From Candidatus Aminicenantes bacterium (GTDB lineage: Bacteria; Acidobacteriota; Aminicenantia; Aminicenantales; JAFGBC01): 64,000 nt of DNA. Position 1 is the first letter of the stretch. The number at the start of each line of letters is the position of its first letter. Of this stretch, positions 7,131 to 11,222 are shown in pieces. Below the pieces are notes generated by a model, which worked only from the letters and a program-made list of their open reading frames with translations, ran no database searches and was not told the origin of the DNA. The stretch lies in the NCBI GenBank assembly GCA_963702005.1, contig OY969696.1, positions 864,001-928,000 on the forward strand, written 5' to 3'. A program made the position numbers and the translations under genes.

Positions 7131-7511
7131 TCAGTCTGGGCGGAAGACTTCGAGATCCAATTCCTTAATCATCCGGTAATGGCGGTCGTTGGCGGTCAGG
7201 AGGGATTCCCCGTGGACGATGGCCGTCGAGCAGATTAGGGCGTCGGGCAGGGTCAGGCTCTTGCTCAGGAAATGCCGCTCGATGTAGAAGATCGCTTTGG
7301 CCGAGATGTCTTCGCTGATATAGAGAAGCCGGGCGTTCCAGGCCCGGAACGCCTTCCTCAAGTCCTGAAGCTCCCGCTTGTTTCTCATTCCCTGGAGGAG
7401 TTCCGCGTAGGAAACGGCCGAAACGGCCAATGTCCGTCCCCTTTCGATGGCGGCGCGGGCCTTGCGGTTGCCCCGCATGTACCAGATCAGGACGTCGGTA
7501 TCGACGATCAT
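7131..7511 (-). CDS. vapC: VapC/PIN-domain toxin
   Basis: MIVDTDVLIW, SYAELLQG, PDALIC, LLTANDRHY acidic PIN motif; ATGA overlap with antitoxin. Confidence 0.9.
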   Translation of the reverse strand: MIVDTDVLIWYMRGNRKARAAIERGRTLAVSAVSYAELLQGMRNKRELQDLRKAFRAWNARLLYISEDISAKAIFYIERHFLSKSLTLPDALICSTAIVHGESLLTANDRHYRMIKELDLEVFRPD

Positions 7512-7750
7512 TCGAAGCGGCCTTTCCTGATCTTGCGAACGTACCCGTTGACGTCGGCGACGGCGGGATTGTCCTTCCACATCCCGAAAAGCCCGAGCTC
7601 CGCAGGAGCCGAGGGCGTTTCCCGCTCTTTGAAGGGAATGATTTTCGCCCTGGGCTGGCCCCGGAAGGTAATCACGACCTCTTCCCCCCGGGAGACGGCA
7701 TCCAGAATTTCCTTGGAGTGAAACCTCATGTCTTTGGCTGTCGCGCGCAT
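7508..7750 (-). CDS. Phd/YefM-family antitoxin
   Basis: MRATAKDMRFHSKEILDAVSRGEEVVITFRGQPRAKIIP; directly upstream of PIN toxin. Confidence 0.88.
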   Translation of the reverse strand: MRATAKDMRFHSKEILDAVSRGEEVVITFRGQPRAKIIPFKERETPSAPAELGLFGMWKDNPAVADVNGYVRKIRKGRFE

Positions 7751-7769
7751 AGTCGCTCGGCTTTCGATA

Positions 7770-7814
7770 ATAGTTGACATTATGAAATGTAAACTATCAA
7801 CAAGCCCTTGTCAA
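7770..7814 (-). promoter_or_regulatory. Sigma70 promoter with overlapping inverted-repeat operator for the TA operon
   Basis: TTGACA (7814-7809), 17 bp, TACATT (7791-7786); IR ATAGTTGACAT-N6-ATGTAAACTAT (7770-7797, 10/11 match). Confidence 0.75.
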
Positions 7815-8135: not shown

Positions 8136-10166
8136 CTATAGTTTTTTCTTCCAGATTCCGGCGCTGTAGGTTCCGGCGAACAGGGTCCGGCTGGCGGCAT
8201 GAAATTCGAGATGGAGGATGTTTTTATCGATCAGCCCTTCGGAGATGTCGGTCCAGGTCAGGCCCCGGTCCTTGCTCTGAAATACGCCGCCGCTTCCCCC
8301 GCTAAAGATCTCGTTCGGGTTGCTTTTGTTGGCGATGATGGAATATGCGCCGTTCGGGCCCGAGCACTTGGTCCATGTTTGGCCGCCGTCCGCGCTCCGA
8401 TAAATTCCATCCCATGAGGTTCCGGCGTAGACGATGTTCGAGTTTCCCGGATCGACGGCGATGGACTTGATGTCCCTGTAGGTCCAGGGGAGCCGCGTCC
8501 AGGACGCGCCGCCGTTCGTGCTCTTGTAGATAGCCCCGACATTGTAGTCGGAGGTGTAGCCTCCCGCGAAAATAACGCTGGAGTTCGAGGGGTCGAAGGC
8601 CGCGGTGTTGATGGTGTAGGCCGTCTCGTTGGCGATTTTGGCCTGGGTCCAGGTATCACCCCCGTTCGAGGTGAGATACAGCCCGATATAATTCGGGTCG
8701 CTAGACGTGTTGTAAATCCACCCCGAGACCGCGATCCGGCTGGGATTCCGGGGGTCCCCGGCGATTCCGGTGACGTTCTTGTGGAGGATGTTCGTTTTCG
8801 TCTGGGCTCCGTCTACAGACCTGTAGACGTCGTCCTCGCCTCAACCCCCGGCCAGGAAAAAGACCGTCTTTGGGTTCGAAGGATGGACGACAAAACCCAG
8901 AATACTCTCACAGCGGTAAAAATCAGGGCACTTGGTCCAAGCCCCGCCGCCGTTCGCGGTCTTGAACAGGGCGTAGTTCGCGACCTCGGTGTAGATCGTC
9001 TGAGCGGAGGAGGGCGCGACTCCGAAGGAATCAGGCCTGGAGGCCCTGATCCCTGTGTGGCTCGCTTTCCAGAGGATCCCTGCGTTCTGGCTCTTGAAGA
9101 TCCCGGCCCAGGTGCCGCCGATGATCGTGTTGCCGTTCACCAGGAGCCGGGTGCCGTATCCGTAGATCCCGTTTCCGTAATGTGTCCAGGTCTTCCCGCC
9201 GTCCACGCTCTTCCAGCAGCCCCGATCGTTCTCCTCGTTGCCGCTGCCCAGGCCATAGAGCGTGCCGGGCTTGGCCTTATCCACTGCGAGGGCGCTCACG
9301 TTCAAGTAAAATGGTGAGGCTTGGTTCTGCCACGAGCCCCCTCCGTTCGTCGTCCTCGCGACTCCATTACTGTAAGCGACGAAGACGGAGTTCGGGTCTA
9401 TCGGATGGAGGACCAGTCCGTCGGCTCTGGGATTGATGACAGTGCCGGGATTGAAAACAGCGTCCTTGGTGATGTTCTTGTAGCTGCCGCCGCCGTTCGT
9501 GGATTTAAAAATCCCGACCTTCCCTTTGCCCGCTTTAGTATAGTTCCCGCAGAGGTAGATGATATTCGGATTCTTGGGATGGATTCCGATGTCGAGGATG
9601 TCGCCGTACTGGGCCGTCGGCTCGAGCTTGACGATCGTCCAGGTTTGGCCGCCGTTCGCGGACTTGGCGACGGCCGGGCAATAGGCCCACGTCGAAAAAT
9701 TTGTGACGAAATGTCCCGTGATGAAAAAAATCTTCGAGTTCGAGGGATGGATCGCCATGCGGCCGCTGTAGGCCTGAAAACCGAACGGGCAGGCGATGCT
9801 GTCGGGAAAAGTGACGCCCCGGTCCGAGGACTTGAGAATGGCATAGCTCGAGTAAGCGAAGACGACGTTGGCGTTTTTCGGGTCCGTCACTATATCATTG
9901 ATGCTGTTTTGGAGGATAAGGGTCCGCGTCCAGGTCAAACCGTTGTTCGAGGACTTGAAGAATTGAGAGGGATAGACGGCAGCGGAGGCGTAGATCTCGC
10001 TGGGATATTTTGGGTTCCGGGCCAGCCCTCGGACTTCTCCCCCGTAGGGGCCGATGGCCGTCCAGGCGGAGGCGCCGCCGGGCGCCCTGTCAGCCGGCGT
10101 CTCCCGCCCGCCGAAAAGCAGGGCGCAACACAGGACGATGATAGCGACGAGGACAATCCTCTTCAT
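8136..10166 (-). CDS. Secreted Asp-box/BNR-repeat beta-propeller protein, 676 aa if the in-frame TGA (8843-8841, codon 442) is read as selenocysteine
   Basis: GGAGG RBS, signal peptide MKRIVLVAIIVLCCALLFG; S-x-(N/D)-G-G-x-(T/S)-W repeats on both sides of TGA; frame stays open 234 codons to TAG 8138-8136 with no in-frame ATG/GTG/TTG. Confidence 0.8.
8810..8829 (-). promoter_or_regulatory. Candidate bacterial SECIS element
   Basis: mRNA UGA-GGCGAGGACGA-CGUCUACAGGUCUGUAGACG: perfect stem starting 11 nt after UGA, apex CAGGUCUG as in E. coli fdhF SECIS. Confidence 0.75.
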
Positions 10167-10209
10167 GGCCCTCCTCCCAGGCGGCTTTGAGGCAAATCCC
10201 TTTAGCCAA

Positions 10210-10238
10210 ATAATAGCGCCACAGGCCACGTGCGTCAA
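10210..10238 (-). promoter_or_regulatory. Sigma70-like promoter of the Asp-box gene
   Basis: TTGACG (10238-10233), 17 bp, TATTAT (10215-10210). Confidence 0.55.
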
Positions 10239-10324: not shown

Positions 10325-10373
10325 GGGCCGGTCTTGATTTCGCCGCCGCCTTGCGGATAATATGGTCGGGAAC

Positions 10374-11222
10374 ATGATCAAGGTCATCGTCAACGCCGAC
10401 GATTTCGGCTTCTGCCCGAGCGTCAACGAGGGCATCGTCCTCGCCCACCGCGAGGGGATCCTGACCAGCGCGACCTTGATGGCCAACGCCCCCGGCTTCG
10501 ACCAGGCCGTCGCCCTCTCCCGCGAGAACCCGAACCTGGGCATCGGCGTCCACCTCAACATCGTTCGGGGACGGCCCCTGTCGGACCCCGCCCGGATCTC
10601 GAGCGCGGTCGCCCCGGACGGCCGTTTTTGGGGGAGCGTCTACAAGATCATCCGCAAGCACTATGCGCGCTCCATCCGCCTCGCCGACGTCGAAACGGAA
10701 TGGCGGGCCCAGATTGAGAAGGCCCTGAGGGCCGGGATCGCCGTGACCCATCTCGACAGCGAAAAGCACATGCACACCTTCCCGCCCTACTTCAGGATCG
10801 CGCTCAAGCTCGCCGGCGACTTCAACATCCGGGCCGTCCGCTTCATCAACGAGCGCTGCCTATCCCTCTCGCCGGCCCAAAACGTCAAGTCCTTCTTCAT
10901 CGCGGCCTGCTGCCGTTCGATGCGTAAGACGATTCGCAATCATGGTATAATGACCGTCGACCGCTTCTACGGCGTGTGCCATAGCGGCCGGATGACGGCC
11001 CCCCGGATCCGGAGGATCCTGGAGCGGGCCGGGGAGGGCTGCAGCGAGATCATGGTCCACCCCGGCCGCCTGACGGAGGAGCTCGTGTCTCTGGAGAAGG
11101 AGTTCGGGTCTTATTACATCAACAACCTCCGGGAGGTCGAGTTGGGGGCCCTGCTCGACCCGGACCTCAAGCGCGTCGTCCGCGAGCGCGGGGTCCGGCT
11201 GATCTCCTACGGCGGGATGTGA
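10374..11222 (+). CDS. YdjC/ChbG/HpnK-family carbohydrate deacetylase
   Basis: IVNADDFG, TSATLMAN, GVHLN, THLDSEKHMH, EIMVHPG. Confidence 0.9.
   Translation: MIKVIVNADDFGFCPSVNEGIVLAHREGILTSATLMANAPGFDQAVALSRENPNLGIGVHLNIVRGRPLSDPARISSAVAPDGRFWGSVYKIIRKHYARSIRLADVETEWRAQIEKALRAGIAVTHLDSEKHMHTFPPYFRIALKLAGDFNIRAVRFINERCLSLSPAQNVKSFFIAACCRSMRKTIRNHGIMTVDRFYGVCHSGRMTAPRIRRILERAGEGCSEIMVHPGRLTEELVSLEKEFGSYYINNLREVELGALLDPDLKRVVRERGVRLISYGGM

Follow-up and report, generated by a model that had tools for sequence, protein, structure and literature searches.

An exported Asp-box propeller of Candidatus Aminicenantes with an in-frame UGA: a probable new selenoprotein family

Prokaryotic selenoproteins have been catalogued in 119 families in a 2026 review (PMC13188914). 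Most characterised selenoproteins have thioredoxin-like folds, and many families are relatives of thiol-oxidoreductases or carry UxxC or CxxU motifs (PMC13188914). Catalogued envelope selenoproteins include the TonB-dependent receptor of the FCYXU type, the GSU2204/MtrB-PioB barrel, ExtKL, the UshA-like type, and the TlpA-type UGC (PMC13188914). The family described here is similar to these in placing selenocysteine (Sec) in proteins that are exported or lie in the outer membrane, in many cases with a Cys nearby, and in the logic of its prediction, which combines a Sec/Cys pair with a bSECIS (PMC13188914). It differs in that no beta-propeller and no set of a dozen paralogues per genome has been reported among them (PMC13188914). 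Table 1 of the review has no propeller, BNR, or sortilin entry among the 119 families, and no NCBIfam selenoprotein model matched the protein. In the literature searched, no paper on a propeller or Asp-box selenoprotein family was found; supplements, which possibly hold more candidates, were not covered. The terms BNR, sortilin, propeller, and glycosyl do not occur in the main texts of PMC12013277 and PMC13326102. An earlier note on this gene, made without database searches, had proposed an undescribed class of selenoprotein, which held against the 119-family catalogue. Export as such has precedents among catalogued selenoproteins (PMC13188914). Decoding is very likely canonical (SelB, bSECIS, and UGA) in a bearer that is not: the protein is large, exported, and built of repeats, and its only Sec is placed, by inference from the sequence, in a surface loop.

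GH74 enzymes have a tandem 7+7 propeller architecture (PMC2716378, PMC9103125), and in known Asp-box glycosidases the functional residues are on top-face loop 2-3 (PMC2716378). GH74 xyloglucanases (PDB 6p2l, 1sqj/2ebs, 2cn2/2cn3) are the best solved-structure matches to the protein (E 4e-13 for the single protein and 1e-38 for the family profile), and both groups form one chain of about 700 residues with an uninterrupted run of Asp-box blades. Unlike GH74, the family carries a Sec, inferred to be on the ninth blade in loop 2-3, and has no CBM and no carbohydrate gene context. Among Pfam families, only Sortilin/VPS10 (PF15902) passes its cut-off (116 vs. 33 bits, in five partial stretches). Sortilin is likewise an Asp-box propeller and is a non-enzyme; it has 10 blades and 10CC modules and serves as a receptor in eukaryotes, whereas no 10CC module was detected in the protein here. 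Ycf48/HCF136 shares seven-bladed Asp-box repeats, but the protein here is twice as long, and the models stay below cut-off (PF14870, 16.8 vs. 27 bits; NF010237, 22 vs. 326 bits). No sign of phototrophy was seen in the host, unlike the setting of Ycf48/HCF136. The product is likely an exported protein of about 650 residues, probably with two 7-bladed propellers like GH74, a reading made without a 3D model. The protein has about 14 repeat units, and the sequence register places Sec442 by inference in the loop that precedes the strand running into the ninth Asp-box.

The gene lies on the minus strand of the window (the whole stretch of DNA analysed, 64,000 nt), whose coordinates are used in Table 1. 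From 10166 to 8136 (-) there is one frame of 677 codons, composed of ATG, 440 sense codons, TGA, 234 sense codons, and TAG. The TGA (codon 442, 8843-8841) is the single internal stop, and ATG, GTG, and TTG are all absent from the 234 codons that follow. In the gene frame, GC3 is 0.78 upstream of the TGA and 0.795 downstream; the other two frames have values of 0.46 and 0.51, with 3 and 4 stops. Asp-box repeats go on downstream of the TGA, as does coding conservation. The protein N-terminus (MKRIVLVAIIVLCCALLFGG) looks like a signal peptide when judged by eye, and inspection by eye of the listed paralogous frames (21 full-length, 3 degenerate) gave the same kind of N-terminus. The earlier note had read the locus as a new selenoprotein gene whose frame and repeats run 234 codons past an in-frame UGA without a start codon or other lesion. 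All of this held, with exactly one internal stop, and every completed computational check was favourable. The promoter, ribosome-binding site, and signal peptide that it named were found as a consensus match, as GGGAGGAGGG, and as the N-terminus judged by eye, respectively. Its SECIS-like hairpin after the UGA also held, with conservation and compensatory changes, and its 676-residue exported BNR/VPS10-like propeller with Sec442 is supported, export being judged by eye. The TGA is very likely a Sec codon in an exported propeller and not a lesion; there are no incorporation or expression data.

Table 1. Predicted features of the gene and its upstream region (window coordinates).
Feature	Position	Strand	Remarks
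Promoter-like site, TTGACG-17 nt-TATTAT	10210..10238	-	Consensus match only, 10/12 positions
Shine-Dalgarno GGGAGGAGGG	10169..10178	-	2 nt 5' of ATG; read from sequence
Predicted selenoprotein gene	8136..10166	-	676 residues plus TAG stop; Asp-box (BNR) propeller, 13 Asp-boxes
Signal-peptide-like N-terminus	10104..10166	-	MKR then hydrophobic stretch; end approximate
Cys419, candidate redox partner	8910..8912	-	23 residues before Sec; partner role inferred
UGA, read as Sec442	8841..8843	-	Invariant Gly codon (GGY) directly 5'; comparative alignment
bSECIS hairpin	8810..8829	-	5' arm 8829-8822, GGUC loop 8821-8818, 3' arm 8817-8810

The gene is one of 12 intact, full-length paralogues with TGA in the genome, which are 30-44% identical, and the TGA is at alignment column 603 in all 12. 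The motif at this column is G-U-x(3-6)-[VI]Y[RS]SVDGG. Outside this genome, the TGA is kept by a 78%-identical orthologue from the same genus, and a genome from a different family has it too. A scan of 185,579 species genomes for the exact hairpin gave 10 matches, 8 of them with the TGA (Ca. Aminicenantes and Ca. Zixiibacteriota); the matches in public metagenome contigs have it in 75 of 77 cases and never have TAA or TAG, so that TGA is present at 83 of the 87 exact matches of the 20-nt probe in public data overall. Two to three further paralogues are decayed; frameshifts occur in those at 756153-758184 and 1976701-1978582, and the latter has TGG at the Sec column. Among the six closest TGA-free homologues, four (P0002, P0005, P0006, and P0007; full length, 53-62% identical) have Cys at the column, as do paralogue 2125121 and P0148. 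In many other homologues the position is occupied by Glu, Ser, Pro, Tyr, or Thr, so that the fold can do without Sec. A FastTree tree (several long branches, arbitrary root) has the Sec and non-Sec forms intermingled.

The SECIS of Escherichia coli fdhF has a short upper stem, a GGUC-type loop about 11 nt after the UGA, and a bulged U. The hairpin here (CGUCUACA-GGUC-UGUAGACG) begins 11 nt past the UGA and resembles that of fdhF in its GGUC-type apical loop on a short upper stem. It differs in its perfect helix of 8-10 bp, in which no bulged U was seen, in its variable spacing, and in encoding an Asp-box. Published bSECIS criteria (PMC13188914) are met, with a 4-nt loop beginning GG, a stem of 8 bp, a UGA-to-loop distance of 19 nt, and a free energy of -9.6 kcal/mol for the hairpin alone; the 45 nt after the UGA fold with -15.6 kcal/mol. 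An Rfam search gave no SECIS family, its sole match being a chance one to CRISPR-DR (E 6.9). Compared with shuffles, the fold of a 71-nt stretch (from 7 nt before the UGA) was not unusual (z -1.42). A single-sequence fold therefore proves little, and the weight rests on comparative data.

All 12 paralogue TGAs are followed, 10-14 nt downstream, by a hairpin of 8-10 bp with a GGUC loop. Across the genome there are 13 occurrences of the hairpin core, each of them (13/13) preceded at 15 or 18 nt by an in-frame TGA, and a covariance model found 14 sites. The outer pair of the stem is G-C in 34 aligned rows, A-U in 16, and unpaired in 1, and double changes are present at three stem pairs. Of all cells, 98.3% are paired, compared to 14-52% with the partner slid. 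Most rows of this alignment (A3) were retrieved by the exact hairpin pattern, and six of the eight pairs are consequently fixed in those rows. One compensatory change, UAC..GUA to UUC..GAA, alters two amino acids and keeps the pairing; a second is UAC..GUA to CAC..GUG. The hairpin sits inside the codons for (D)VYRSVDG, the next Asp-box strand. In the post-UGA boxes, Arg is AGG in 9/9, Ser is UCU in 10/11, and Val is GUA in 10/11, whereas the 27 other YRS Asp-boxes of the family have AGG in 4 and UCU in none. These data make selection on the hairpin at the RNA level likely; part of the conservation is at the protein level, since the hairpin overlaps a conserved peptide motif. Three BNR genes (L041, L108, and L131) have the hairpin codons without an upstream TGA, so the hairpin alone is no proof of Sec. 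A near-invariant SECIS that doubles as Asp-box codons shows neatly, in nature, how constraints on RNA and on protein can overlap, and its 20-nt sequence can be used as a family probe with few false matches. In some metagenome copies the UGA-to-stem spacing is larger than 10-14 nt.

The genome has a complete set of selA, selD, selB, and tRNA-Sec at 765.4-770.1 kb. This locus is flanked by seven copies of the family, five just upstream and two downstream. TGA is also the commonest ordinary stop, ending 1884 of 3917 long frames, and it terminates five paralogues. Searches of the genome for the FdhA, SelD, and AhpC/TSA families showed no internal stops, and the Rdx family search had no match. A crude screen for further Sec genes (open frame on both sides, GC3 signal, and bSECIS-like hairpin) gave 29 candidates, ten of which are members of the propeller family. 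No UxxC or CxxU context was seen in the other 19, and the screen is too rough to show absence. Several checks had been proposed in the earlier note. Homologues passed, with TGA retained in paralogues, orthologue, and public matches as given above and Cys forms existing; the Sec machinery was all present; and the raw reads of four DNA runs yielded nothing beyond fragmentary contigs. A contig of 158 nt (run X3) covers 8839-8996 without differences, with the TGA at its very end, and it was not counted as evidence. A miscall is excluded because the TGA is conserved in independent assemblies, not because of the reads.

Between two of the paralogues are genes for three exported CxPC redoxins, a NapH/MauN-like ferredoxin, and an outer-membrane barrel. 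Homologues of these genes (45-90% identity) are present in 24 of 88 mostly short loci. Of 86 unique Sec contexts, 82 include a Cys at -31 to -18 or +21 to +28, and a CxxxU is present in another two; the position -23 is Cys in 50 of the 86, and Cys-form homologues are without this Cys. In the PSG-U-P subgroup the candidate partner is a Cys at +24. The conserved TlpA/ResA-like and NapH-like neighbours, together with the nearby Cys, suggest an envelope Cys-Sec redox site. In the proposed mechanism, SelB would be recruited by the bSECIS hairpin, and the genome's own SelB and tRNA-Sec would decode the UGA as selenocysteine. Sec and the neighbouring Cys would form a redox-active selenol/selenenylsulfide, the exported TlpA/ResA-type CxPC redoxins may keep the Sec reduced in the cell envelope, and the NapH/MauN-like membrane ferredoxin may feed the redoxins. 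The nearness of Sec442 to Cys419 and the placement of Sec on the top face are inferred from sequence register alone. A Cys-Sec envelope redox site served by redoxins and ferredoxin is an inference for which the evidence falls a little short of an even case. The redoxin cluster is not dependent on Sec, because the cluster-linked propellers of G003 and G011 have Pro at the Sec column. The chemistry put forward in the earlier note (redox, metal, or an Se-S bond) likewise remains inference, and selenium incorporation is undemonstrated.

A bolder reading is conceivable. The Sec propellers may be the terminal, substrate-facing part of an undescribed envelope electron-transfer module, in which electrons would pass from the NapH/MauN-like ferredoxin to the CxPC redoxins and to the top-face Cys-Sec. 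The substrate would be extracellular or periplasmic (for instance polysulfide or sulfur, selenium, or arsenic species, or organic disulfides). On this reading, these Aminicenantes would retain the Sec machinery mainly for the sake of this family, which has expanded to 12-14 copies next to the sel genes. The conserved gene cluster provides a specific, testable hypothesis on envelope selenium chemistry in uncultured anaerobes.

Among rival explanations, the one that survives best accepts the Sec and takes it to bind a soft metal or metalloid (Cu, Hg, As, or Se), the propellers being envelope binding or handling proteins. TlpA and NapH/CcoG-type proteins serve copper-centre maturation in other bacteria, and the neighbours here resemble them. 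The lone Sec in an exposed loop with a Cys nearby fits this explanation, and several metal-binding selenoproteins are listed in the review table (PMC13188914). Against it, no metal-binding domain or motif was detected in the protein (Pfam, NCBIfam), and no metal transporter was seen in the cluster. A metal role remains possible, and the present data cannot separate it from the redox reading.

Sec could also be the nucleophile or acid-base residue of a GH74-related hydrolase, in a loop of the 2-3 kind. The nearest solved relatives are GH74 enzymes by family profile, the GH74 Asp is in loop 2-3 with Sec in a like loop of another blade, and the column is occupied by Glu, Cys, or Ser in homologues. 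The GH74 blade-1 Asp ('YARxD'), which we take to be catalytic, follows the 'YARA' strand end in loop 2-3; the site is Asp in entry 2cn2 and Ala in 2cn3. It aligns to 'YAatas' of the family profile and to Y-A-S-A-A in the protein, with no Asp. For the C-terminal propeller, where GH74 has a second catalytic Asp, the matches gave no alignment in register. The matches are mostly through Asp-box repeats and out of register, the F510_1955 family glycosylhydrolase model NF045728 is below cut-off (160 vs. 175 bits, residues 478-672 only), and no carbohydrate-active neighbours were seen in the cluster. We consider a hydrolase unlikely.

A third explanation is a selenium-dependent switch, with a truncated 8-blade product or the full protein made according to selenium supply. 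Sec decoding competes with termination in bacteria, and the paralogue expansion adjoins the sel genes. A product cut after blade 8 of 14 would be unlikely to fold (an inference), the existing Cys forms are incapable of switching, and no terminator-like site was seen after the UGA; such a switch is very improbable.

A nonsense mutation or sequencing error would make the gene a pseudogene, from which only a 441-residue fragment or nothing is made. Public gene callers do stop at the codon, the Gly before it is the last residue in 31 of 32 short database relatives, and some paralogues of the genome are truly decayed by frameshift. This explanation is all but excluded by the single TGA column in 12 such divergent paralogues, the recurrence of TGA in independent assemblies, the retention of frame, GC3, and repeats in the downstream codons, and the conserved hairpin with its compensatory changes. 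A genome-wide change of code in which UGA means Gly or Trp (codes 25 or 4), under which the GG-UGA-G context would read smoothly as a Gly run, is as good as ruled out by the use of TGA as the commonest stop and at the ends of five family members, by its internal occurrence once per gene in one column and always with the hairpin, by the complete Sec machinery, and by Cys, not Gly or Trp, at the column in TGA-free homologues.

With Sec decoding as the preferred reading, the propellers very likely constitute a large, so far unannotated selenoprotein family in sediment bacteria, for which there are no selenium incorporation data. Every gene caller sampled truncates the members at the TGA, and the family would therefore be missed by current annotation and by selenoproteome surveys restricted to known families. 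Members occur in Ca. Aminicenantes and Ca. Zixiibacteriota, and they turn up commonly in metagenomes of sediments and wetlands. Truncated relatives carry the JGI name 'photosystem II stability/assembly factor-like'.

The in-frame UGA of the window gene very likely encodes selenocysteine (Sec442), selenium incorporation itself being inferred. TGA 8843-8841 is the only internal stop in the frame, and no ATG, GTG, or TTG occurs among the 234 codons 3' of it. GC3 of the frame is 0.78 on the 5' side of the TGA and 0.795 on the 3' side; on the 3' side, the two alternative frames show 0.46 and 0.51 and contain three and four stops. Asp-box repeats (...KS.DGG.TW...) continue past the TGA. The N-terminus resembles a signal peptide, which is inferred from sequence alone without a predictor. 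An earlier note had described this gene and proposed it as a new selenoprotein; the description held in all details that were checked, and the proposal very likely holds, with its functional part remaining a hypothesis.

Features of the window gene (window positions), the sel cluster, and the gene cluster 3' of tRNA-Sec (G000, source genome; C1, its contig)
Feature	Position	Strand	Description
Window gene	10166-8136	-	677 codons: ATG, 440 sense, TGA (codon 442), 234 sense, TAG
Ribosome-binding site	2 nt 5' of window gene ATG	-	GGGAGGAGGG; sequence reading
Promoter-like site	10238-10210	-	Upstream of window gene
Hairpin	8829-8810	-	Perfect 8-bp stem, GGUC loop; starts 11 nt 3' of UGA
selA	765.4-766.8 kb		sel cluster
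tRNA-Sec	770,011-770,106		sel cluster
Conserved cluster	G000:C1:774988-780261 (L114:4988-10261)		Between two paralogues 3' of tRNA-Sec
Outer-membrane beta-barrel protein			In conserved cluster
Exported redoxin			In conserved cluster; 205 residues, CVPC
NapH/MauN-like Fer4_5 ferredoxin			In conserved cluster
Lipoprotein-like redoxin			In conserved cluster; 251 residues, CGPC
Divergent redoxin			In conserved cluster; 681 residues, CVPC, DUF6029 tail

Comparison of the read-through protein with the whole genome revealed many paralogues, each with exactly one in-frame TGA. Twenty-one full-length frames were extracted, and 12 have an internal TGA, always in the same alignment column and within the motif G-U-x(3-6)-[VI]Y[RS]SVDGG. 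Paralogue identity to the window gene is only 30-44%. The nine TGA-free paralogues have Cys (1), Ser (2), Pro (1), Tyr (1), Thr (1), or a gap (3) at this column. The TGA is kept in a same-genus orthologue (78% identity) and in a homologue from another family of the order. Of the six nearest full-length database proteins that lack the TGA (53-62% identity), four have Cys at this column and two have Glu. A lesion at TGA 8843-8841 was rejected on the evidence of TGA at one column in paralogues, orthologue, and other-family homologue, and of Cys in TGA-free relatives. TGA is also an ordinary stop in this genome: of 3917 long stop-to-stop frames it terminates 1884, and it closes the frame of five family members.

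A decayed paralogue (G000:C1:1976701-1978582) has a frameshift just 5' of the Sec column, TGG (Trp) at the column, and has lost the hairpin. Matches to paralogues G000:C1:756153-758184 and 3454954-3456883 are split over two frames, suggesting frameshifts; both retain TGA and hairpin, and the latter has a compensatory UUC..GAA variant. Homologue L015 (G016:C11:1150574-1152100) is reported to have two in-frame TGAs, and its residue at the family column is not Sec.

A common hairpin follows the TGA in all 12 TGA-bearing paralogues. A relaxed pattern of its core matches 13 times in the 4.3 Mb genome, every time in a family member with an in-frame TGA 15 or 18 nt 5' of the core, and a covariance model made from the hairpin alignment finds 14 sites, one variant copy more. 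Scanning one genome per species (185,579 species) with the exact 20-mer of the hairpin gave 10 matches. Eight have TGA in the same motif and belong to four MAGs, three of Ca. Aminicenantes and one of Ca. Zixiibacteriota; of the remaining two, one is an unrelated frame and the other a TGA-free BNR protein. JGI metagenome contigs yielded 77 matches on 71 contigs, and 75 have a stop 5-7 codons 5' of the 20-mer, which is TGA in all 75. The earlier note had named homologues with TGA or Cys at the column plus a conserved hairpin as support, and these were found. Three BNR genes have the hairpin without an upstream TGA, a caveat on the hairpin as evidence for Sec.

These three BNR-repeat genes, in which Asp-box codons form the GGUC hairpin, are at loci L041 (Roseivirgaceae MAG), L108:2518, and L131 (G410:C41:7680-7715). 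Their hairpins could be chance matches or relics of lost Sec.

The window gene hairpin meets published bSECIS criteria (PMC13188914), with a GGUC loop, an 8-bp stem, 19 nt from UGA to loop, and -9.6 kcal/mol. The absence of a matching Rfam family is a caveat. Paired cells make up 98.3% of the hairpin alignment, against 14-52% with the partner slid, and three of the eight pairs show two-sided changes. The outermost pair, which the search pattern did not fix, consists of G-C in 34 rows and of A-U in 16, with one row unpaired; Val-to-Ile on one side accompanies synonymous GAC-to-GAU on the other. UUC...GAA replaces UAC...GUA in one paralogue and in its orthologue from the same genus, changing Tyr to Phe and Val to Glu while preserving the helix, and metagenome copies include a CAC...GUG version. 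The post-UGA box has AGG for Arg in 9/9, UCU for Ser in 10/11, and GUA for Val in 10/11; elsewhere in these proteins, 27 "YRS" Asp-boxes use AGG four times and UCU never. Two further caveats apply: the hairpin overlaps a conserved peptide, and most alignment rows were found by the exact pattern, where only two pairs are free.

The earlier note had also made Sec machinery a check, and selA, selD, selB, and tRNA-Sec are all present, clustered together at a distance of about 100 kb from the window. Five family copies lie immediately upstream of selA (756.1-764.7 kb) and two downstream of tRNA-Sec (772.9-774.8 and 780.8-782.8 kb). In the order, selA occurs in 20 of 41 genomes, including all three with the family hairpin. 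Since only three of the 20 selA-bearing relatives have this hairpin, the other Sec users need different selenoproteins. A same-genus genome (83% complete) lacks selA and the hairpin, and its protein is in Ser or Gly form. When the covariance model was run on 151 genomes of the order, five of them, spread over four families, proved to hold true Sec-type members. Distant from the sel cluster is a second SelB-like ORF of 460 residues (G000:C1:461980-463362; L123:1981-3363, minus strand), with SelB winged-helix domains 2 and 3 and no detected GTPase domain.

A rough, unrooted FastTree covers 81 sequences: 47 with Sec, 5 with Cys, and 29 with other states. Sec forms are found on both deep and shallow branches, mixed among non-Sec forms, and the tree requires at least 9-12 state changes. 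Of the 10 sequences in the clade of the window gene, five have Sec, three Cys, and two Glu. A single origin of Sec followed by repeated loss is inferred as the simpler reading because the SECIS is almost identical between proteins about 30% identical.

The family is genuine, very likely so for Sec at the UGA, and apparently undescribed. No propeller, BNR, or sortilin entry is among the 119 prokaryotic selenoprotein families and subfamilies of a 2026 review table (PMC13188914), and the deep-Sep and BSepDB papers mention no such protein in their main texts, supplements being outside our scope; BSepDB searches only known families. The literature searched likewise yielded no paper on such a family, supplements and one 2025 paper excluded, and the novelty proposed earlier held within this scope. 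Among short relatives in the protein collection, 31 of 32 end exactly at the Gly preceding Sec, and their names go no further than "photosystem II stability/assembly factor-like" or "hypothetical". Sec decoding looks canonical; the fold, export, paralogue expansion beside sel genes, and a SECIS within Asp-box codons are the apparently new elements.

Sortilin-Vps10 is the Pfam match above cut-off (116 bits, in pieces); Pfam BNR and Ycf48 and the best NCBIfam match, the F510_1955 glycosylhydrolase model, score below theirs. Among solved structures, GH74 xyloglucanases match best, at E 4e-13 for the protein and 1e-38 for the family profile. With 13 Asp-boxes and some 14 repeat units, the sequence would be compatible with two seven-bladed propellers as in GH74, no 3D model being available. 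The end of the GH74 N-terminal strand, "YARAD", aligns with family blade 1. Its Asp (Asp in 2cn2, Ala in 2cn3) we take to be catalytic, which fits these two entries. The family lacks this Asp and was therefore not filed as a GH74 enzyme. Asp-boxes cover the loop that joins strand 3 to strand 4, and all known Asp-box glycosidases carry their ligand-binding and catalytic residues on the top face, in loop 2-3 (PMC2716378). Sec442 is five residues N-terminal of the strand running into the ninth Asp-box, and is therefore placed, by register without a structure, in loop 2-3.

The function of the family is only a hypothesis. The leading reading, held at slightly less than even odds, is that envelope reductases serve a Cys-Sec redox site on the propeller; it is inferred because redoxin and ferredoxin neighbours recur and Cys lies near Sec. 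NCBIfam matches of the cluster proteins are all under curated cut-offs, the best being ResA, TlpA, and NapH/MauN. All three CxPC redoxins of the cluster are exported and resemble TlpA/ResA. Of the 88 loci searched, most of them short, 24 have homologues of the cluster genes (45-90% identity) beside family members; these 24 include a further Aminicenantes chromosome, where the gene order is identical. In 86 unique Sec contexts, of which one is a false positive, Cys is at -23 in 50 and at -31 to -18 or +21 to +28 in 82; two of the other four have CxxxU. By register, these Cys would lie in loops flanking loop 2-3 on the same face. Against the redox reading, the -23 Cys is absent from Cys-form homologues, and in two genomes the propeller linked to the cluster carries Pro at this position. 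Metal or metalloid binding by Sec is possible and not excluded; a hydrolytic role, also not excluded, is unlikely.

The window gene is adjoined downstream by a PIN-domain toxin and Phd/YefM-type antitoxin pair (window 7131-7780, minus strand), and a YdjC-like gene of the carbohydrate deacetylase family (window 10362-11222, plus strand) is divergent from it.
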